Part shown: positions 5,650-31,019 of the stretch, piece after piece
How the letters are laid out: each line of letters starts with the position of its first letter
How positions within the stretch are numbered: the first letter of the stretch is position 1
Assembly (NCBI RefSeq): GCF_004363045.1
Contig: NZ_SNYJ01000026.1
Coordinates: 4,846-36,845 of the forward strand
From: Aureibacillus halotolerans
Lineage (GTDB): Bacteria; Bacillota; Bacilli; Bacillales; DSM-28697
DNA: 32,000 nucleotides
Direction of reading: 5' to 3'
Position numbers and translations under genes: made by a program
Notes under the pieces: generated by a model
The model's input: only the letters and a program-made list of their open reading frames with translations
Database searches by the model: none
What the model was told of the DNA's origin: nothing

Positions 5650-7034
5650 ACGAAGAATGTGGCATTTTTGGTGTTTGGGGACATCCAGACGCTGCGCAAA
5701 TGACGTATTACGGCTTGCACAGCTTGCAACACCGTGGCCAAGAGGGCGCTGGCATCGTTGTCACAGACGGTGAAGAATTAAAACATTCCAAAGGGCTTGG
5801 TCTCGTGACGGAAGTGTTTCAGCAAGATGAGCTTGATCGTCTAAAAGGCCATGGCGCTGTTGGTCATTGTCGTTATTCGACAGCAGGAGGCGGCGGGTAC
5901 GAAAACGTGCAGCCCCTTTTGTTCCGTTCCCAAAGAGGCGGTCTTGCTCTAGCGCATAACGGCAATCTTGTGAACGCAAACGCGCTTAAGCATCAGCTTG
6001 AAGCACAGGGTAGCATTTTTCAAACGACCTCTGATACAGAGGTGCTGGCCCATTTGATTCGCCGCGGCGGTCATCTTGAGTTGGCAGATCAGGTGAAAAA
6101 TGCGCTCACAATGCTTAAGGGAGCCTACGCGTTTATTATTATGACTGAGAATAAAATGCTTGTGGCCCTTGATCCAAACGGACTGCGCCCGTTGGCGATT
6201 GGTCGTTTTGAAGATGCTTATGTCATCGCGTCTGAAACATGTGCCTTTGACGTGGTCGGCGCTGAATATGAGCGCGACGTGCAACCAGGTGAGCTTTTGA
6301 TCATTGATGATACTGGCATTGAAGTCCAACGTTTTGCCTCTGCACAACGTTCGATTTGCTCGATGGAATACATTTATTTCTCACGTCCTGACAGCAACAT
6401 TGATGGCATTAACGTGCACTCTGCCAGAAAGCGTCTTGGAAAAGAGCTAGCGATGGAAGCCCCAGTAGAGGCGGATGTCGTTACAGGTGTGCCAGATTCA
6501 AGTATTTCCGCTGCGATTGGTTACGCAGAACGAGCGGAGTTGCCTTACGAGCTTGGATTAATCAAAAATCGCTACGTTGGGAGAACCTTTATCCAGCCGT
6601 CACAGGAGCTCCGTGAACGGGGCGTTAAAATGAAACTTTCGCCAGTACGGGGCATCGTTAACGGCAAGCGTGTCATCATGGTCGACGATTCCATCGTTCG
6701 CGGAACAACAAGTCGACGCATCGTGAACATGCTGCGCGAAGCAGGGGCGACAGAGGTGCATGTTCGCATTTCATCACCACCGATTCAGAACCCTTGCTTT
6801 TATGGCATTGACACGTCCACAAGATCGGAGTTGATCGCGGCGACGCATACCATTGAAGAAATTCGCAAGGAAATCGGAGCGGATACGCTGTCTTTCTTGT
6901 CACCTGAAGGTTTGGTCAAGGCGTTGGATCGCCCATTTTCAGGAGAGAAGCGCGGGCAATGCCTCGCCTGCTTCACGGGCGAGTACCCAACCGAAATCTA
7001 TGCAGATACGTTGCATCCGCACGAAAAAATATAG
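5625..7034 (+). CDS. purF: Amidophosphoribosyltransferase (glutamine PRPP amidotransferase)
   Basis: ATG 5625 has GAAAGGAG 7 nt upstream and gives [12 protein letters not shown]..., the 11-residue propeptide plus N-terminal Cys known for B. subtilis PurF. Candidate Fe-S ligand cysteines are present ([21 protein letters not shown]). The track start 5607 is a TTG extension without an RBS. Overlaps purL by 25 nt. Confidence 0.95.
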
Positions 7035-18550: not shown

Positions 18551-20752
18551 ATGTACATAACGGACAAGCTACTCCAAGGACTAAATGACAAACAACGCGA
18601 GGCTGTGCTGTATACGGATGGTCCGCTCTTAATAATGGCAGGAGCGGGGAGCGGAAAAACCCGTGTGCTGACACACCGAATGGCCTATTTGATGAGTGAA
18701 AAAAAGGTGGCGCCGTGGAACATCCTCGCTATTACATTTACAAACAAGGCTGCTCGCGAGATGAAAGATCGTGTGCAACAAATTACCGGTCTTGGTGAGG
18801 ATTTATGGATTTCGACGTTTCACTCCATGTGTGTTCGCATCTTGCGCAGGGACATTGAACGAGTCGGCTACAATCGGAGTTTTTCAATTCTCGATTCCAG
18901 TGATCAGCTTTCTGTCATAAAACAGATTTGCAAAGAGCTTAATATGGATACGAAACGGTTTGAACCTAGAGCGTTGCTCGGTGCGATTTCATCGGCCAAA
19001 AACGAGCTGAAAAATGCGGCCGCTTTTGAAGCGCTCGTCGGTGGGTACTATGAAAAAATGGTGGCCGATGTGTACACACAATATGAACGGCGACTAAAGA
19101 AAAACCAGTCGCTTGATTTTGATGACTTGATTATGGTGACGATTCGTCTATTCCGGGAAGTGCCTGAAGTGCTCGAGTTTTATCAAAAGAAATTTCGTTA
19201 TATTCATGTCGATGAGTATCAGGATACAAACCATGCGCAATATACACTTGTGAACCTGCTTGCCGCAGCAAGCCGCCAGCTTTGCGTCGTTGGGGACTCT
19301 GACCAATCGATATACAAATGGCGTGGAGCAGACATTGCAAACATTCTCTCCTTTGAGAAGGACTATCCTGAAGCATCTGTCATTATGCTTGAACAAAACT
19401 ATCGTTCGACGGAAAGCATCTTGAATGCAGCCAACGGAGTGATTACCCAAAATTCAAACCGTAAGCCGAAGGAACTCTGGACGGACAACAAAGGCGGGGC
19501 GCCGATCACGTATTATCGAGCGGATACGGAACGTGATGAGGCGCAGTATGTCATCGGGAAGATGAAGGAATTTGTTCAATCTGGAAAGTGGTCGTATCGT
19601 GACATGGCGGTGCTGTACCGTACAAATGCACAGTCACGAACGATGGAGGAAACGCTCGTCAAGTCAAACGTCAATTACGCGATGGTCGGCGGCACAAAGT
19701 TCTACGATCGCAAAGAAATTAAGGATTTGCTCGCTTATTTAAGGCTGATTGCCAATCCTGACGATGACATTAGTCTGGCGCGAATCGTTAATGTTCCTAA
19801 ACGAGGCATAGGCGCGACGACGATGGACAAAGTAGCTGCATATGGTCTTCATCATGACCTATCTCTGTTTCAAGCATTAAAAGAAGTGGAAGAGGTCGGC
19901 TTGTCGGCACGTTTTACGAAAACACTGCAAAACTTCTCCAAACTGATGAGCCAATGGACACAGCAGCAAGAATTCTTGAGTGTCACGGAAATCATTGAGG
20001 AAGTGTTGGACAAAACGGGCTACCGGGAAATGCTAAAAAATGAAAACACGATTGAGTCGCAAAGCCGCTTGGAAAACATCGAGGAGTTTTTAACGGTCAG
20101 CAAGCAGTTTGAGCAGCGTAGTGAAGACAAAACATTGCTTGCCTTTCTGACAGACTTGGCCCTCGTCGCAGACATTAATCAGCTCGAGGAGGACGACGAT
20201 GGCAAGCCGCAAGATGCGGTCACCCTTATGACATTGCATTCAGCAAAAGGGCTCGAATTTCCGATCGTCTTTTTAATCGGTTTGGAGGAAGGCGTGTTCC
20301 CGCACAGCCGCTCCCTTATGGAAGAGGATGAAATGGAAGAGGAGCGCCGGCTTTGCTATGTCGGTATTACACGTGCGGAGAAGAATCTATTTATGACAAA
20401 CGCAAAAATGCGGACATTGTTTGGACGAACAAACACGAACCCTCCCTCTCGGTTTATGAAGGAAATTCCAGATGAGCTAATTGAGGAAGAAGGCGGGGAC
20501 AGCTTCGGCTCGATCTCCACACCACCTCCGTTTTCTCCATCCTCTGGTCCAAAACGTCATGTGTCCATTCCACAAGCAAAGAAGGTCGGCTCGTGGCAAG
20601 TAGGCGACAAGGCGGCGCATAAAAAATGGGGTACGGGAACAGTAGTCAGCGTTCGTGGCGAGAGCGACGACACGGAGCTTGATATTGCGTTTCCGAAGCC
20701 GATTGGCGTCAAACGTTTGTTGGCAAGCTTTGCCCCAATTGAAAAAGAATAG
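18551..20752 (+). CDS. pcrA: ATP-dependent DNA helicase PcrA (UvrD family, SF1)
   Basis: 733 aa with Walker [28 protein letters not shown] and the [15 protein letters not shown] motifs. A C-terminal Tudor-like segment is present ([20 protein letters not shown]). RBS AAAGGAG is 8 nt upstream. Confidence 0.97.
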
Positions 20753-22795
<2,043 letters not shown>

Positions 22796-22811
22796 AATGT
22801 GGTGAAGAACG

Positions 22812-23957
22812 TTGATCTATAAACGCAGTTTTAGTCTTTTGCTGGCAGCGGTCGTGCTCGCAGGCTGTAACCCTGTGCTCAACAACAATGAGGACGATGA
22901 GGTCATTCAGCGTGAGGATGAGGAACAGCAGCAAACAACACCATCGATTATCCCAACGGTTCAGATTTCTGAGCAATTTTATCGGACCGTCCTGCCGTTT
23001 AAGCCAGGTGCGGCACGAGGGTTAATTGTGAACAATATCTCAAATCGACTCGACATCAATGTCTTTGAAACAGGCCTTCTGCGCCTATCTCAACAACCGT
23101 TCCCAACAGATGATTACTTCTATCAAGAAGGACAATACATCACGGCAGAGGACATTAACACGTGGACACAGCGTCAAAATGATGAGGGTAAAGGGCTAAA
23201 CCCACCATTAAGTGGGGAGGGCAACTTGGAGCAGCAGAACAATCAAAATCCTGAGTACCTGTCACACATCCTCGAGCAAAACTTTTTAACGAAAAACGAA
23301 AATGACGAGTATCAACTCGGTGGCATTTCGATTGGTTTGTCGTTGAACTCTGTCCATTACTTTAATCAAGAAGATGGGTTCCCACGCCAAACGGATATTC
23401 CAAGGGAAACGGTACTGGCCAAAGGGAAGGAAATGGCAAATACAATTCTTCAAGAGCTGCGAACGAGAGAAGGCTTAGCTGAAGTGCCCATTCTCATCGG
23501 CATCTTTGAAGAATCGCCAAGGAATACGGTGCAACCTGGGACCTTTATTTCAAGTGGTATCGCAGAAAGCGGAGAGGCGAGCATTGGAGACTGGTCCGGC
23601 GTGAATTCGCAATACGTCGTTTTCCCATCGAATGAAGCGACCGAAAACCATTACAGTGATGCCGACAAAATGACGATGTTTCAAGAGGATATCGCGATGT
23701 ATTTTCCAAACTATGTAGGTGTTATTGGACGCGGTTTGTATCGTGGAGACGAGCTGCAAAAAATGATGATTGATATTCCAATCACGTTTTATGGAAAAGC
23801 GGAAACGATCGGTTTTACCCAATATGTTGCTGGACTTGTTGAGGAATATTTTCCGAAATACGTTGAGGTGGAAGTCAATATCACAACATTGGACAAGCCG
23901 CAAAGTTTAATCGTACGGGAGAGCAAAGAAGAGCCGTTTGTGTATATTTATGAGTAA
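22812..23957 (+). CDS. yerH: CamS-family lipoprotein (YerH)
   Basis: TTG start. MIYKRSFSLLLAAVVLAGC has the lipobox LAGC. FYRTVLPFKPGAARG matches the CamS-family N-terminal signature. Position after ligA matches the B. subtilis pcrB-pcrA-ligA-yerH operon. Confidence 0.85.
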   Translation: MIYKRSFSLLLAAVVLAGCNPVLNNNEDDEVIQREDEEQQQTTPSIIPTVQISEQFYRTVLPFKPGAARGLIVNNISNRLDINVFETGLLRLSQQPFPTDDYFYQEGQYITAEDINTWTQRQNDEGKGLNPPLSGEGNLEQQNNQNPEYLSHILEQNFLTKNENDEYQLGGISIGLSLNSVHYFNQEDGFPRQTDIPRETVLAKGKEMANTILQELRTREGLAEVPILIGIFEESPRNTVQPGTFISSGIAESGEASIGDWSGVNSQYVVFPSNEATENHYSDADKMTMFQEDIAMYFPNYVGVIGRGLYRGDELQKMMIDIPITFYGKAETIGFTQYVAGLVEEYFPKYVEVEVNITTLDKPQSLIVRESKEEPFVYIYE

Positions 23958-24058
23958 GGCACTGTCTTATTACTGACAGGACTCGCAAACCGTGGTTGGT
24001 TTTGGTAATATGAATAGTATTGTGAGTGTTCGACAGATTTTTCTCGGAGGTGGATGAA

Positions 24059-24349
24059 TTGTCAAGAATTACAAAGGACGAAGTCAAACATGTGGCTCAT
24101 TTAGCGCGCTTGGCCGTCACAGATGAAGAAGCGACGCACTTTGCATCCCAGCTTGATGACATTATTTCATTTGTGGAGCAGCTGAGCGAGCTTGATACGG
24201 ATAATGTCAAACCGACAGCGCATGTCATTGAAATGAAAAACGAACTGCGCGAAGACACGGCAGCACCTTGGTTGTCGAATGAAGAAGCACTAAAAAATGC
24301 ACCGGATGATGAGGATGGCCAAGTGCGCGTCCCATCGATTTTGGAATAG
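24059..24349 (+). CDS. gatC: Asp/Glu-tRNA(Asn/Gln) amidotransferase subunit C
   Basis: TTG 24059 sits 8 nt after GGAGG and gives (M)[23 protein letters not shown]..., 96 aa as in B. subtilis GatC. The track start 24026 is an upstream extension. Confidence 0.95.
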
Positions 24350-24362
24350 GGGGCGAGCAACC

Positions 24363-25826
24363 GTGGCATTATTTGACCATTCCATGAAAGACCTACAAGC
24401 GAAGCTACATAAAAAAGAGCTGTCTGTCACTGACTTGGTAGACGCCTCATACACACGCATTCATGACGTGGATGATCGGATTAACGCGTTTCTTACCTTA
24501 AATGAAGAAGCAGCCCGAACACGTGCAAAGCAACTAGACGAGTCTGGTACTGGCGGCTTGCTTTACGGCATGCCAATCGGTGTAAAGGACAATATCGTCA
24601 CTAAGGATTTACGTACGACTTGTGCAAGTAAGATTCTTGAAGGCTTCACACCATTGCATGACGCGACCGTTGTGCAAAAACTGAATGATCAAGGTTCTGT
24701 AACCATCGGAAAAATCAATATGGATGAGTTTGCGATGGGGTCTTCGAATGAAAACTCAGCCTATGCGACGGTTCGTAACCCGTGGAACACCGATCATGTC
24801 CCAGGGGGCTCAAGTGGTGGTTCCGCTGCTGCTGTAGCTGCTGGTGAAGTATTGTTTGCACTTGGCTCGGATACAGGTGGTTCAATTCGCCAACCGGCAG
24901 CCTATTGTGGTGTCGTTGGACTTAAGCCTACTTACGGACGTGTGTCCCGTTTCGGTCTCGTGGCATTCGCCTCATCCCTTGACCAAATTGGTCCTTTGAC
25001 ACGCAATGTCGAGGACAATGCTTACTTGCTACAAACGATTGCCGGACATGACAGCTACGACGCGACATCAGCCAACCTCGACGTTCCTGAGTATACAGCT
25101 GCGTTGACAGGTGACGTAAAAGGCCTAAAGATCGCTGTGCCTAAGGAATACCTTGCTGAAGGGGTCGACCCTGCGGTGAAGGAAAAAGTGCTTGCTGCGT
25201 TAAAAGAACTTGAACGTCTTGGGGCTACTTGGGATGAAGTGTCTTTGCCTCACTCCAAATATGCGTTAGCGACGTATTATTTGTTGTCTTCTTCAGAAGC
25301 CTCTGCCAACCTAGCTCGTTTTGATGGGGTTCGTTATGGCTTGCGGACGGACAATGCGGACAATTTAATCGACATGTACAAGCAAACGCGCAGCGAAGGC
25401 TTTGGCGATGAAGTCAAGCGACGCATTATGCTAGGTACATTTGCCCTTAGCTCTGGGTATTATGATGCGTACTACAAAAAGGCGCAAAAGGCACGTACAC
25501 TGATCAAGAAGGATTTTGAAGACATCTTTGAAAACTACGATGTCGTCATTGGTCCAACAACGCCAACAACAGCTTTCAAAGTAGGCGAAAATACGAAGGA
25601 CCCATTGACGATGTATGCCAACGACATTTTAACAATTCCGGTCAACCTCGCAGGCGTGCCAGGCATCTCTGTTCCATGTGGCACTATTGATGGGTTGCCA
25701 GTCGGCTTGCAAATTATCGGGAAACATTTTGATGAAGCGACGGTATATCGTGTGGCGCATGCCTTCGAACAGGCGACAGACCACCATAAACAAAAACCGT
25801 CTCTAGGAGAGGGGGAAGCGCGATGA
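24363..25826 (+). CDS. gatA: Asp/Glu-tRNA(Asn/Gln) amidotransferase subunit A
   Basis: GTG 24363 sits 9 nt after AGGGGG and gives (M)[19 protein letters not shown], matching the GatA N-terminus. The amidase signature [14 protein letters not shown]...[12 protein letters not shown] is present. The track start 24297 lies inside gatC. Confidence 0.96.
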
Positions 25827-27253
25827 ATTTAGAAACCATTATCGGGCTTGAAGTGCACGTTGAACTAAAAACAAACACGAAAATTTTCTGTAATTGCTCG
25901 ACGGCCTTTGGCGCTCCTCCAAACACAAACGTTTGCCCGATTTGCCTTGGCCATCCTGGTGTGTTGCCTGTGCTGAACAAACGTGCCGTTGATTTTGCAA
26001 TGCGCGCCAGCATGGCTCTCAATTGTGAGGTTGCAACGGATACAAAATTCGACCGTAAAAACTATTTCTACCCAGACAATCCAAAGGCGTATCAGATCTC
26101 TCAGTTTGATAAGCCAATTGGTGAGAACGGTTGGATTGAGATTGAAGTGGAAGGCAAAAAGAAGCGCATCGGCGTAACACGTGTGCACCTTGAAGAGGAT
26201 GCCGGCAAGCTAACGCATGCAAGTGGCGGCGCTTCTCTCGTAGACTTTAACCGTCAAGGGACACCGTTGATTGAAATTGTGTCTGAGCCGGATATGAGAA
26301 CGCCAGAAGAGGCGTATGCCTATCTTGAGAAGCTAAAATCCATTATTCAATACACAGGTGTATCGGATTGCAAAATGGAAGAAGGCTCGTTGCGTTGTGA
26401 TGCCAATATTTCGCTCCGTCCTTATGGGCAGGAGAAATTCGGTACAAAGACCGAATTGAAAAACCTCAATTCCTTTACGTATGTGCAAAAGGGTCTTGAG
26501 TTCGAAGAAAAACGTCAAGCGAAGGAATTGCTCGGTGGGAATGTCATCCTCCAAGAAACACGCCGCTACGACGAATCGACAAAAAAGACGCTTCTCATGC
26601 GTATCAAGGAAGGCTCGGACGACTATCGTTACTTCCCAGAGCCCGACTTGCAAGAGCTTTACATTGACGATGCTTGGAAGGAACGCGTCAGCAAAGAGAT
26701 TCCTGAACTGCCAGACGCAAGGAAAGCACGCTATGTGAACGAACTGGGCTTGCCTAGCTACGATGCGATGGTGCTGACCTTAACGAAAGAAATGTCGGAT
26801 TTCTTTGAAGCAACGATTGCTGAAGGCGCCGATGCGAAGCAAACGTCAAACTGGTTAATGGGCGAAGTATCCGCTCACTTGAATGCCAATGGTCAAGAGC
26901 TCGCGGATGTTGAGATGACACCAACAGGACTTGCGAAAATGATCGGTTTAATTGAAAAAGGCACGATTTCCTCGAAAATCGCCAAAAAGGTATTTAAAGA
27001 GCTGATTGAAAACGGCGGCGATCCAGAGAAGATTGTCGAAGAAAAAGGCCTTGTGCAAATTTCCGATCCAAGCCAGCTTGTAGGTGTTGTCGAAGAAGTC
27101 GTCACGAACAATCCGCAGTCGATTGAAGACTTTAAAAACGGGAAAGATCGCGCCCTTGGCTTCCTCGTCGGTCAGATCATGAAGGCGACAAAAGGGAAAG
27201 CAAACCCACAAATGGTCAACCAATTAATTAAAGAAGAACTCGAAAAGCGTTAA
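25823..27253 (+). CDS. gatB: Asp/Glu-tRNA(Asn/Gln) amidotransferase subunit B
   Basis: 476 aa with [17 protein letters not shown] and [19 protein letters not shown] overlap with gatA. Confidence 0.97.
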
Positions 27254-27266
27254 TGATGCGAATGTC

Positions 27267-27291
27267 GAAAGCACCCAGTATGGGTGCTTTC
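27267..27291 (+). terminator. Stem-loop after gatB
   Basis: GAAAGCACCCA / TGGGTGCTTTC is a perfect 11-bp stem with a 3-nt loop, 13 nt after the stop. There is no long T-run beyond the stem. Confidence 0.55.
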
Positions 27292-27376
27292 AATGTTGAC
27301 AAAGCTAATTGAGAGATGACGTTTTGGAAGTGTGTAAGGGCCTAAGGAAAGCAGTGAAGTGACGTTCAGCCGGAAA

Positions 27377-27687
27377 AGCGAGCCGTTACGCAAGGGAAGC
27401 GAGCCCAAAAAGGGAAAAAGCGAGCCGCAAAAGAGGGAAAGCGAGCCCGAAATGAGGTAGAGCGAGCCGAACAAGAGAAAGCGAGCCTGAATTGATCGGA
27501 AGCGAGCCTGAAAAAGGGAAAAGCGAGCCGTAAAATAGGGAAAGCGAGCCCGAAATGAAGTAGAGCGAGCCGAACAAGAGAAAGCGAGCCTGAATGGATT
27601 GGGAGCGAGCCCAAAAAGGGGAAAAGCGAGCCGCAAAAGAGGGAAAGCGAGCCCAAAACATGATCAAGCGAGCCCAAATCGGTGCGA
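27377..27687 (+). repeat. Tandem array: 15 units of ~21 bp (two of 19 bp) with invariant core AGCGAGCC, forming ~2.8 copies of a 103-bp five-unit higher-order repeat
   Basis: Core starts are at 27377, 27398, 27419, 27440, 27461, 27480, 27501, 27522, 27543, 27564, 27583, 27604, 27625, 27646 and 27667. Units 2-6, 7-11 and 12-15 are collinear; units 5 and 10 are identical, as are units 3 and 13. The + strand is strongly purine-rich. Confidence 0.9.
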
Positions 27688-27734
27688 AGACATAAAAGAT
27701 CCATGCAGCACCTCTCGATGGAAAAGAACGCCAA

Positions 27735-27764
27735 TTTCTTTCTCGCATGCACTAGTGGTATACT
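27735..27764 (+). promoter_or_regulatory. Candidate extended -10 promoter for dgkB
   Basis: TGGTATACT (27756-27764) fits TGnTATAaT. A weak -35 TTCTTT lies 17 nt upstream. It is about 40 nt upstream of ATG 27803. Confidence 0.3.
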
Positions 27765-27802
27765 TAAGAAACGAGTTTACATTGAAGAATGGATGATGTG
27801 AC

Positions 27803-28717
27803 ATGAAGCGTGCGCGTCTCATTTACAACCCGACATCGGGGCGCGAATTAATTAAGCGCGAGCTTCCTGATATTCTTGCACGTCTTGAAGCCCTAGGGTA
27901 TGAAGCCTCATCGCATGCCACTTCTGGGGAAGGCGACGCAATCGAAGCCGCAAAAATAGCTGTCGAACGTCGGTATGACCTTGTCATCGCTGGTGGCGGT
28001 GACGGGACGATTAATGAAGTGATTAATGGGATTGCCGAGCAAGATTGGCGTCCGAAAATCGGCTTAATTCCAATGGGAACAACCAACGATTTTGCCCGTG
28101 CCCTCCGCATTCCGCGTTCTGTGGACAAAGCGCTTCAAATTATTGAAGCCGGACATACCATTCCGCTGGATATTGGCAAGGTGAACGGCATTTATTTCGT
28201 CAATATTGCCGGTGGCGGAAAGCTGACAGAGCTAACTTATGAAGTGCCGAGCAAGTTGAAAACCATGCTTGGCCAACTTGCCTATTATTTAAAAGGCATG
28301 GAGATGCTGCCTTCTATTAAACCGACCGATGTTCGAATTGAGTATGATGGTCGTTTGTTTGAAGGCGAAGTGATGCTGTTTCTCGTGTCCCTCACAAATT
28401 CCGTAGGCGGGTTTGAGAAGCTTGCGCCAGACGCCTTGCTGAACGACGGGATGTTTGAATTAATTATCTTAAAGAAAACCAATCTTGCTGAATTCATCAG
28501 AATTGCCACACTTGCTCTCCGTGGCGAGCACATTAAAGATCGGCATGTCATTTACGCCAAGGCGAGTCGCATTAAAGTAAGCACAAGCGAGCCGATGCAA
28601 CTGAATCTTGATGGAGAATATGGTGGCGATTTGCCCGGTGAATTTGTAAACCTGTACCGGCATATCGAGATGATCGTGCCCGCTGAGCCAAACAAAGCAT
28701 TTCCAAAGGACGACTAA
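27803..28717 (+). CDS. dgkB: Diacylglycerol kinase (DgkB / DagK, YerQ)
   Basis: 304 aa with MKRARLIYNPTSGRE..., GGDGTINEV and PMGTTNDFARAL, the DAGK catalytic-domain motifs. Size matches B. subtilis DagK. Confidence 0.93.
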   Translation: MKRARLIYNPTSGRELIKRELPDILARLEALGYEASSHATSGEGDAIEAAKIAVERRYDLVIAGGGDGTINEVINGIAEQDWRPKIGLIPMGTTNDFARALRIPRSVDKALQIIEAGHTIPLDIGKVNGIYFVNIAGGGKLTELTYEVPSKLKTMLGQLAYYLKGMEMLPSIKPTDVRIEYDGRLFEGEVMLFLVSLTNSVGGFEKLAPDALLNDGMFELIILKKTNLAEFIRIATLALRGEHIKDRHVIYAKASRIKVSTSEPMQLNLDGEYGGDLPGEFVNLYRHIEMIVPAEPNKAFPKDD

Positions 28718-28753
28718 AGCTGCATGGCCACCTCCGGCTATAGCAGCTTTTTT
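28717..28753 (+). terminator. Intrinsic terminator after dgkB
   Basis: AAGCTGC / GCAGCTT stem around a large loop with inner GCC/GGC pairing, followed by a T6 run. Confidence 0.6.
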
Positions 28754-28787
28754 GAATGGTCAACGCAAATCATTTATGAGGATAGGC

Positions 28788-28815
28788 ACCATATGACGCT
28801 AGCAGACATAGCCTA
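28788..28815 (+). promoter_or_regulatory. SigmaK-type (mother-cell) promoter-like match upstream of the Pro/Gly-rich gene
   Basis: AC (28788-89), a 17-nt spacer, then CATAgccTA (28807-15) fits the AC-17-CATAnnnTA consensus as I recall it. The motif is short, so a chance match is quite possible. Confidence 0.25.
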
Positions 28816-28844
28816 CAGTATCTTGAGAAAAAGAGGTGTCTGCA

Positions 28845-29231
28845 TTGTTCCCACAGTTCCCAGGTTTCCCAGGCTTTCCAGGTGGAGGCGGTCCTGGTGG
28901 CCCACCACCAGGCGGAGGAGGTCCTCCCGGAGGTGGCGGCCCGCCCGGACAAGGCGGTCCACCACAAGGCCCACCACCATCCGCGATTCCACAAAGCTTT
29001 AGCGGTGGCGGCGGAGGAGGGCAAAGCGTTGCATTTGTTGCTCCACAATCCTTACAAAATTGCCTATTTCGTTACACGTACATCCAACTAAACAACGGTC
29101 AGGCCTTTTGGTTCTATCCGACACGGATTCGCCGCCAAAGCCACACCGTCACAGGCTATCGCTGGTTAGGCTTCTTTTGGGCTTTTTCCGGCATTGACAC
29201 GCGCCAAATCGTTACCTTCGCCTGTGTGTAA
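28845..29231 (+). CDS. Small Pro/Gly-rich protein with a conserved-looking Cys-bracketed C-terminal domain (about 128 aa)
   Basis: TTG 28845 sits 6 nt after AAGAGGTG; the track GTG 28836 overlaps that RBS. The N-terminus is FPQFPGFPGFPGGGGPGGPPPGGGGPPGGGGPPGQGGPPQGPPPS. The C-terminus is CLFRYTYIQLNNGQAFWFYPTRIRRQSHTVTGYRWLGFFWAFSGIDTRQIVTFAC. A strong terminator follows. Confidence 0.65.
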   Translation: MFPQFPGFPGFPGGGGPGGPPPGGGGPPGGGGPPGQGGPPQGPPPSAIPQSFSGGGGGGQSVAFVAPQSLQNCLFRYTYIQLNNGQAFWFYPTRIRRQSHTVTGYRWLGFFWAFSGIDTRQIVTFACV

Positions 29232-29261
29232 ACTACAGGCCCCTTGCCGAAAATCAATTAG

Positions 29262-29296
29262 AGAAGCCCCGTACGAAGTGGAGGCTTCTTTTTTAT
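29262..29296 (+). terminator. Rho-independent terminator after the Pro/Gly-rich gene
   Basis: AGAAGCC / GGCTTCT stem with extra partial pairs, followed by TTTTTTAT. Confidence 0.8.
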
Positions 29297-29459
29297 GTGG
29301 CGAGGGAAGTGATTGTTTGCTCGGTTAAACACATCAAAGAAAATGTACAACGTCTTAAAAGGAATTAATTTTCATAAACTATTTGAAAAATGCAGGAACT
29401 CTCCAATGAATCGCTAAGTGTTACAGTAGCTCGAATTTTGTTGTCGAAGGGATGGTTAC

Positions 29460-31019
29460 ATGGAGACGATACACGTGGACGTATACATTGCAGGTGGTGG
29501 CGTAGGTGGCGTAGCAGCGGCTTTGGCAGCTGCCAAGCAAGGCCTACAGGTGGCGATGACGGAGGAAACCGATTGGATTGGCGGGCAGTTCACCTCACAG
29601 GCCGTTCCGCCAGACGAGCATTTATGGATTGAATCGTTTGGCTGTACCGCAAGCTATCGCGAGTTTAGAGACCGCGTACGTGGCTATTACAAAACGCAAT
29701 TTCCGGTGACACCCGAAGCTCGGGCAGATAAGCTGCTGAACCCTGGCAGTGCGATTGTGTCACGACTGGCTCATGAACCAAAGGTGTCGTTGCACGTTCT
29801 TGAAGACATGCTAGCTCCGTATGTTCATTCAGGTCGCGTTCGCGTGTTTACGATGCACAAGCCGATCGCTGCGGAAAAAAGCGGGCACGAGGTCACTTCT
29901 GTAACCGTTGAGCATGTGAAGACAAAGCAGCCTATCCGTTTTACAGCCCCGTACATACTAGATGCCACGGAGCTAGGGGAACTGCTGCCAATAACAAATA
30001 CAGCCTATGTCACAGGGGCAGAATCGAAGCAAGACACTGGGGAGCCTCACGCACTGGACGGTCCCGCCGATCCTTTGGATATGCAAGCCATCACGCAAAT
30101 TCTTGCCATGGACATCGCGCCAGGAGAGGACAATGTGATTGAACGCCCTGAAGAATACGGGTTTTGGAAAAAACATCATTCTGATTTTTGGCCGGGCCCA
30201 CAGCTGAGCTGGACAGCGATTCAGCCGCCAACTTTGAAGCATATTGAGTATGGTCTCTATCAAGGAGAAGGCACTTTCCCGCTCTGGCCGTATCGACGAA
30301 TTATCGACCCAACTCACTTTCGTGGAGAGCTATACAGAGGGGACATTTCTTTAATGAATTGGCCGCAAACCGATTATTGGTTAGGCCCTGTGCTAGAGGT
30401 ATCGGAAGAAAGTAGTGCCCATCATCTGTATATGGCGAAGCAGTTGTCGCTGTCCTTTTTGTATTGGATGCAAACGGAGGCGCCAAACTATTCTGGCGGC
30501 AAGGGCTATCCTGAGTTGCGTCTTCGTAAGGATGTCGTTGGCACATCCGATGGCATTGCCAAATACGCATATATTCGTGAATCCCGGCGAATCAAAGCGA
30601 AATTCACTGTCGTCGAACAGCACATCACTGGCGACACACGGCCAGAAGGGTTCACAGACACCGTAGGCATTGGCGCCTATCATATTGATTTGCATCCATC
30701 GACAGGGCAGCGCAACTACATTGACTTTAAAGCATGGCCGTTTCAAATTCCGCTCGGTAGTTTGATCCCTGAGGAGACCGAAAACCTTCTCCCAGCCTGC
30801 AAAAACATTGGCACGACCCATATTACGAACGGCAGCTACCGCCTCCATCCCGTAGAATGGAATATTGGCGAATCAGCAGGGCTGCTAGCCGCCTTCTGTA
30901 TCCGTGAGAATAAGCGCCCAGCGGAGGTGTATGAAAACAAGGATTTGCTGACTAGTTTTCAAGATCAGCTGAAGGCAGAAGGCGTTGAATTGGAGTGGCC
31001 GGAGATTCGTCAAATCTAA
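29460..31019 (+). CDS. FAD-dependent oxidoreductase (GxGxxG Rossmann N-terminus), function unknown
   Basis: 519 aa. VDVYIAGGGVGGVAAALAAAKQGLQVAMTEETDWIGGQ is a classical dinucleotide-binding fold. The overall look is of the stand-alone FAD_oxidored family. RBS AAGGGA is 7 nt upstream. Confidence 0.85.
   Translation: METIHVDVYIAGGGVGGVAAALAAAKQGLQVAMTEETDWIGGQFTSQAVPPDEHLWIESFGCTASYREFRDRVRGYYKTQFPVTPEARADKLLNPGSAIVSRLAHEPKVSLHVLEDMLAPYVHSGRVRVFTMHKPIAAEKSGHEVTSVTVEHVKTKQPIRFTAPYILDATELGELLPITNTAYVTGAESKQDTGEPHALDGPADPLDMQAITQILAMDIAPGEDNVIERPEEYGFWKKHHSDFWPGPQLSWTAIQPPTLKHIEYGLYQGEGTFPLWPYRRIIDPTHFRGELYRGDISLMNWPQTDYWLGPVLEVSEESSAHHLYMAKQLSLSFLYWMQTEAPNYSGGKGYPELRLRKDVVGTSDGIAKYAYIRESRRIKAKFTVVEQHITGDTRPEGFTDTVGIGAYHIDLHPSTGQRNYIDFKAWPFQIPLGSLIPEETENLLPACKNIGTTHITNGSYRLHPVEWNIGESAGLLAAFCIRENKRPAEVYENKDLLTSFQDQLKAEGVELEWPEIRQI

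Follow-up and report, generated by a model that had tools for sequence, protein, structure and literature searches.

The closest described counterparts of the locus analysed here are bacterial minisatellite or VNTR loci, known from MLVA typing and exemplified by vrr of Bacillus anthracis and by the mycobacterial MIRUs, which consist of intergenic units of 10-100 bp arranged head to tail. Such loci are lineage-specific and non-coding, short-read assemblies break at them, and their hallmark is a length that varies from strain to strain. In eukaryotic higher-order satellite DNA and Jeffreys-type minisatellites, diverged monomers are amplified as multi-monomer blocks, and a short core is shared among the units. 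Direct repeats with a conserved core also characterize Rep-binding iterons and parC/tubC-type centromeres, and in plasmid iterons and type II/III centromeres (R6K, RK2, R1 parC, pBtoxis tubC) these repeats lie approximately two helical turns apart. Repetitive, purine-rich sequences of about 300 nt are found, in addition, in the GGA-rich sponge RNAs of the CsrB/RsmZ type.

The tandem array detected between gatB and dgkB in Aureibacillus halotolerans shares features with all of these systems. It occupies 311 bp at a single locus of the window, a term used here for the whole 32-kb stretch of DNA that was analysed. Like VNTR loci, it is intergenic, non-coding and composed of head-to-tail units; it differs from described bacterial VNTRs in combining an invariant 8-bp core with a freely varying remainder, and in a five-unit higher-order repeat that is not typical of such loci. 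The amplification of a block of diverged monomers around a short core recalls the eukaryotic satellites, from which the array differs in being bacterial, tiny and confined to a single locus, with no sign of a dispersed family. The features of the locus, in window coordinates, are as follows.

25823-27253, + strand: gatB, the upstream flanking gene (NCBIfam GatB equivalog, E=3.5e-256)
27267-27291, + strand: terminator-like hairpin of gatB, with arms GAAAGCACCCA and TGGGTGCTTTC, a 3-nt loop and a weak T tail
27377-27687, + strand: tandem array of 15 units, each consisting of AGCGAGCC followed by 13 nt (11 nt in units 5 and 10)
27398-27500, + strand: higher-order repeat copy 1, units 2-6 (21+21+21+19+21 = 103 bp), defined by TRF period 103 and copy alignment
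27501-27603, + strand: higher-order repeat copy 2, units 7-11
27604-27687, + strand: partial higher-order repeat copy 3, units 12-15
27756-27764, + strand: putative extended -10 element of the dgkB promoter, TGgTATACT, assigned from consensus and conservation
27803-28717, + strand: dgkB, the downstream flanking gene (NCBIfam diacylglycerol kinase, E=4.7e-158)

An exact search for the core AGCGAGCC returned 16 occurrences in the 32-kb window, compared to 0.9 expected and to a maximum of three in 100 shuffles, and 15 of them map to the + strand of the array (27377-27674). Core-to-core spacing is 21 bp in twelve instances and 19 bp in two (units 5 and 10), as an initial sequence-only reading of the locus had described. 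TRF reported a period of 21 bp (13.6 copies, 64% match) and a period of 103 bp (2.6 copies, 90% match), the latter corresponding to a five-unit higher-order repeat present in about 2.6-2.8 copies. The same reading had proposed three collinear copies of this 103-bp unit; the period and the correspondence between units 2-6 and 7-11 uphold the proposal, and the third copy holds well only in units 12-13, which match copy 1, with units 14-15 presenting diverged spacers and intact cores. The non-core 13-nt segments are mutually homologous, with consensus NNAAAANRGGGAA, and the units share an extended conserved block of the form R-A-AGCGAGCC-N-N-A-A. The + strand, anticipated to be purine-rich, contains 73% purines. 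The unit and the extended motif AAGCGAGCCNNAA were not detected in the remainder of the 32-kb window.

The species is represented in this analysis by one A. halotolerans genome and one re-assembly of the SRR8552829 reads. In this Logan re-assembly, the contig covering the left flank ends at position 27445 and the one covering the right flank starts at position 27625, both inside the array. The two contigs match the window exactly, and they constitute the sole other public occurrences of the two flanking proteins. Since both break within the array, its edges are confirmed, and the internal copy number derives solely from the reference assembly.

The array had been placed between a gatB stem-loop and the dgkB promoter, of which the stem-loop was confirmed and the promoter is putative. 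The arms of the hairpin (27267-27277 and 27281-27291) are 11 nt long and perfectly complementary, and the structure is preserved in the homologous locus of Litoribacterium kuwaitense; a strict terminator scan missed it because its T run is short. The promoter block is likewise conserved with Litoribacterium, and the array ends some 49 bp upstream of the putative -35 position. The DgkB protein is 100% identical to an A. halotolerans protein, and its next best match (86%) is from strain SIJ1. This strain belongs to Litoribacterium kuwaitense (PMC8289215). The wider neighborhood comprises pcrA, ligA, a 381-aa ORF and gatA upstream, and a FAD oxidoreductase gene downstream. The 381-aa ORF has no NCBIfam match, and its counterpart in the Litoribacterium locus contains a CamS domain.

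Several additional features were observed in the vicinity of the array. Directly behind the gatB hairpin, a perfect TTGACA hexamer (27295-27300) lacks an acceptable -10 partner 16-18 bp away and has no conserved equivalent in Litoribacterium. An upstream ORF of five codons, ATGGATGATGTGACATGA (MDDVT*, 27789-27806), overlaps the dgkB start codon at position 27803, an arrangement that could reflect translational coupling or a leader peptide. The 18 nt preceding the dgkB ATG are 100% conserved in Litoribacterium, and no alignment is obtained for the remainder of the spacer. Downstream of dgkB, a small ORF with no Pfam family (28836-29231) carries TTCCCAGGT as a tandem repeat of 9 bp (28857-28883). 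In Litoribacterium, its counterpart by position (5669-6133 of locus L122) harbors 9- and 24-bp repeats with consensus units AGGAGGTCC and AGGCCCAGGAGGTCCAGGTGGCCC, which look Gly/Pro-rich if translated. Finally, GAAGCGG, the Chi site of Staphylococcus aureus, presents a Chi-like orientation skew in the whole window outside 27340-27700, with seven instances on the + strand and none on the minus strand.

The gene order of the region (gatC, gatA, gatB, dgkB, small ORF, FAD oxidoreductase, rlmCD) is identical in Litoribacterium, and the 435-bp spacer between gatB and dgkB in this organism contains neither a tandem repeat nor a gene. Alignable sequence between both spacers is limited to the terminator hairpin and the promoter/RBS block. 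The array presents no significant similarity to the Litoribacterium spacer; a search there for traces of an in-situ origin gave one marginal 16-nt match, a level that 6 of 200 shuffles also attained. Where gatB precedes dgkB in three other Bacillaceae, the spacers measure 320, 1518 and 1568 bp and hold differing small ORFs or inserted genes (DUF3784, 45-77-aa ORFs), and in a fourth Bacillaceae locus gatB is absent upstream of dgkB. No tandem array was detected upstream of dgkB in any of these four additional loci. The gatB-dgkB junction is plastic among the Bacillaceae and the array is lineage-specific. In a general sense, this bears out the earlier suggestion that the array marks a synteny break, given that the junction varies in length and content. 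The search for conservation of the array among relatives, which the same reading had put forward, came back empty both in Litoribacterium and in the three other Bacillaceae with gatB upstream of dgkB.

The most salient property of the array is the invariance of its core. At least 28 state changes were counted across the 15 units, all of them in the 13 non-core columns and none in the eight core columns. Under uniform rates this distribution has a probability of about 1.5e-6, or about 3e-5 if any block of eight columns is allowed. Likewise, copies 1 and 2 of the higher-order repeat differ in 10 columns (roughly eight events), with no difference in the 40 core columns (P = 0.005-0.016), and units 1, 14 and 15 retain perfect cores next to strongly diverged spacers. 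Conservation extends beyond the core to an A at position -1 and to AA at positions +3 and +4 after it. Judging from the aligned units, this pattern is indicative of constraint acting on A-AGCGAGCC-NN-AA, which would not be expected of a purely neutral repeat. The invariance could stem from repair and re-registration centred on the GC-rich cores as the repeats turn over, or from (weak) selection for a phased recognition site.

The mean period of the array is 20.6 bp and its AA dinucleotides are in phase at 10.3 bp, in agreement with the proposal that successive cores lie about two helical turns apart. The vector sum for AA phasing reached 37 of 61, compared to a maximum of 20 in 500 shuffles and of 19 elsewhere in the window. 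In a wedge model the ratio of end-to-end distance to contour length was 0.62, against 0.89 +/- 0.08 for the window, and none of 200 composition shuffles yielded a value as low, a ratio to be read as indicative only. The AA phasing predicts DNA curvature that sets in about 50 bp upstream of the putative -35 region of dgkB. Phasing and curvature arise by construction in any 21-bp repeat whose unit is asymmetric, so the predicted curvature does not constitute evidence of selection. With a mean period equivalent to two helical turns, the phased, intrinsically curved, purine-rich DNA upstream of the dgkB promoter can be understood as a by-product of the repeat.

Sequences carrying the same core were sought beyond this locus. 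When 185,579 species genomes were scanned for three AGCGAGCC cores separated by 11-13-nt gaps, at least 120 loci distributed over many phyla were returned, and a stricter pattern applied to metagenomes returned 17. The inspected loci were mostly short, near-perfect repeats with periods of 19-21 bp and unrelated remainders, several of which spell coding-type heptads in frame. In a control on viral contigs, the real core yielded eight loci and three permuted cores of the same composition yielded 6, 16 and 41. Since the real core is not enriched over permuted ones, the cross-phylum matches represent background, and a cross-phylum family of AGCGAGCC arrays was discarded. A literature search retrieved no paper containing the core sequence and nothing relevant on 21-bp repeats. 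One of the matches lies in a 669-aa ORF of a 163-kb IMG/VR contig (L125, 6856-8865, minus strand), confirmed to be coding, in which the heptad EQEKERA is repeated seven times. The DNA unit encoding this heptad, AGCGAGCCGAACAAGAGAAGG (21 bp), contains the 19-bp unit of the array, AGCGAGCCGAACAAGAGAA, exactly. Having been found after selecting on the core, this match is most likely a low-complexity coincidence.

Among the core matches, those in other Bacillales, in Lederbergia citrisecunda and three Sporosarcina species, are genuine minisatellites of comparable architecture, at the following positions of their loci.

L014, 441-621: 21-bp intergenic minisatellite
L023, 6387-6742: 21-bp intergenic minisatellite
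L089, 6445-7315: 21-bp intergenic minisatellite
L099, 2117-2361: 21-bp intergenic minisatellite

The number of units in these arrays ranges from 9 to about 41, and their higher-order repeats measure 42, 63 and 105 bp. The units (GGCTCGCTTTGGACGCGGRGC) of Lederbergia and of one Sporosarcina species are distinguished by only 1 nt in 21. Their neighbors are unrelated housekeeping genes (YtxH/NUDIX, thioredoxin/PepF, cardiolipin synthase/VanY and ADH), and they may constitute an undescribed cross-genus repeat family. Like the A. halotolerans array, they are intergenic, have a 21-bp period and form higher-order repeats, and their units contain GGCTCGCTT, the reverse complement of AAGCGAGCC. In contrast to it, the other 12-13 nt of the unit are unrelated and the invariant part is CGCGTCCAAAGC, with the 8-mer itself varying. 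The 8-mer that both groups have in common reflects ascertainment, because the search required the core.

Other known classes of repeat or recognition sequence were considered and rejected as explanations for the array. The 8-bp constant part and the homologous 13-nt segments do not conform to a CRISPR array, with repeats of about 23-47 bp and unrelated, unique spacers. Insertion of a mobile element was discarded on the absence of terminal inverted repeats other than the terminator hairpin and one weak 13-nt pair. Sub-words of the core are neither enriched nor strand-skewed outside the array, contrary to what a Chi-like recombination word would show, and the SpoIIIE SRS or KOPS-like word GAGAAGGG is absent.

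Taken together, these observations lead us to regard the array, with moderate confidence, as a young, lineage-specific, non-coding and essentially non-functional intergenic minisatellite of A. halotolerans. Among the roles that the sequence-only reading had listed without choosing between them, this is the one that the analysis favours, given the absence of the array in relatives, of a second copy in the window and of plasmid or phage similarity. The array probably has no dedicated cellular role. Under this interpretation, a 21-bp unit would have multiplied head to tail, and five diverged units, one of them cut to 19 bp, would then have given rise to the 103-bp higher-order unit, whose duplication would have brought it to about 2.8 copies. 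Such steps usually proceed by unequal recombination or slipped-strand mispairing, in which the identical GC-rich 8-bp cores would be the likely points of misalignment. The spacer in which they would have taken place, flanked by the gatB terminator and the dgkB promoter, is free to vary among the Bacillaceae. The anatomy of the array, its lack of coding capacity, its absence from the relatives examined and the want of related arrays are directly demonstrated. We infer the slippage mechanism from the structure of the array, as we do the neutrality of the repeat and the reason for the invariance of its core.

Among the alternatives, the one that draws most directly on core invariance envisages a phased module acting at the DNA level, in which the cores would bind a sequence-specific protein on one helical face, or the curved DNA itself would act, to modulate the dgkB promoter or local nucleoid structure. 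The invariance of R-A-AGCGAGCC-NN-AA amid variable positions, the 20.6-bp mean period, the AA phasing, the low wedge-model ratio and the location of the array just upstream of the putative -35 element are all in its favor. Nonetheless, the neighborhood encodes no candidate binding protein, the promoter is retained in the nearest relative, where the array is missing, single copies of the extended motif are lacking elsewhere in the window and the curvature is what an asymmetric 21-bp repeat generates by construction; we therefore deem this alternative unlikely. A bolder version of it, in which the A-AGCGAGCC-NN-AA blocks would be some 15 candidate phased protein sites in a curved chromosomal nucleoprotein array tuning dgkB or the nucleoid, and perhaps part of a broader, as yet undescribed group of 21-bp satellites centred on GGCTCGCTT in the Bacillales, is decidedly doubtful. 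If bound by a protein, the array would also operate much like the iterons and centromeres of plasmids, and the early proposal of an iteron- or centromere-like binding array fared unevenly: the core is indeed invariant beyond chance and helically phased, but the accompanying elements of such systems are missing. By analogy, repeats that run head to tail at about 21 bp and present a conserved core on the same face of the helix would be compatible with the iteron or centromere of a plasmid or phage replicon, either integrated or former. Against this origin, the flanks are core chromosomal housekeeping genes in conserved order, no rep or par-like gene is present among the seven annotated ORFs on either side of the array (18551-31019), and the spacer lacks both an AT-rich unwinding element and, with one mismatch allowed, any DnaA-box-like site; the 40-mer of lowest GC content (27.5%) falls inside gatB. 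In addition, the array had no BLASTN match among 72,556 plasmids and 50,697 phage records. A replicon origin is thus largely refuted, and we consider it very improbable.

Readings that place the function of the array in its RNA or protein product were also evaluated. The array could be transcribed on the + strand, by read-through of the gatB terminator, into a purine-rich repeat RNA serving as a protein or sRNA sponge or as a long dgkB leader. The short T tail of the gatB hairpin makes such read-through conceivable, and every unit provides G-runs, A-runs and a constant 8-nt word, a typical length for an sRNA seed. On the other hand, consensus scans identified no promoter or terminator bracketing the array, which folds no better than shuffled sequences on the + strand (z = -0.6) and worse than them on the minus strand (z = +2.1), and Rfam returned no match to it, either at the gathering threshold or at E = 10. 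The array had been described as full of GGA motifs, yet GGA occurs 10 times against the 13.9 +/- 2.7 expected from composition in shuffles, which is no enrichment. Unlike CsrB/RsmZ-type RNAs, the array does not present such motifs in hairpins. The complementary word GGCTCGCT is absent from the window, and the array from Litoribacterium. These results add nothing in favor of the sponge role that had been advanced, and we consider a repeat RNA improbable. A further reading takes the array for a remnant or copy of a coding heptad repeat, K/E-R-A-x-x-x-x (or S-E-P-x-x-x-x), whose frame was lost before the 103-bp amplification. A unit of 21 nt amounts to seven codons, purine richness is typical of sense strands encoding E/K/R-rich proteins, units 1-5 read KRAVTQG KRAQKGK KRAAKEG KRARNEV ERAEQEK in one frame, and the 19-bp unit is embedded in the seven EQEKERA heptads of the unrelated viral ORF, a match to be discounted as a core-selected coincidence. 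Conversely, no + frame is open across the array, as each 103-bp copy introduces stop codons (TAG, TGA) and shifts the frame by -2. The stops that had been anticipated were found in all three + frames. The minus frames had been described as open throughout: ORFs of 128, 128 and 120 aa do cross most of the array, and two of the three frames have a stop near its edge. Their translation had no homologue among 5.8 billion proteins, and homology of these spurious ORFs, tried as a route to sister arrays, yielded no match. Column variability lacks a 3-base periodicity, three positions that would be third in their codons fall within the invariant block, and the spacer of the relative holds no gene. A coding ancestry hence appears markedly improbable.

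If the core were a binding site, the locus would represent a rare bacterial chromosomal iteron-like array, recently born from a tandem repeat, and would show regulatory or architectural DNA arising by satellite expansion upstream of a lipid-metabolism gene. As a species-specific minisatellite, the reading that we favor, the array would serve as a warning on assembly errors, illustrated by its breakage in the short-read re-assembly, and as a typing marker for A. halotolerans.
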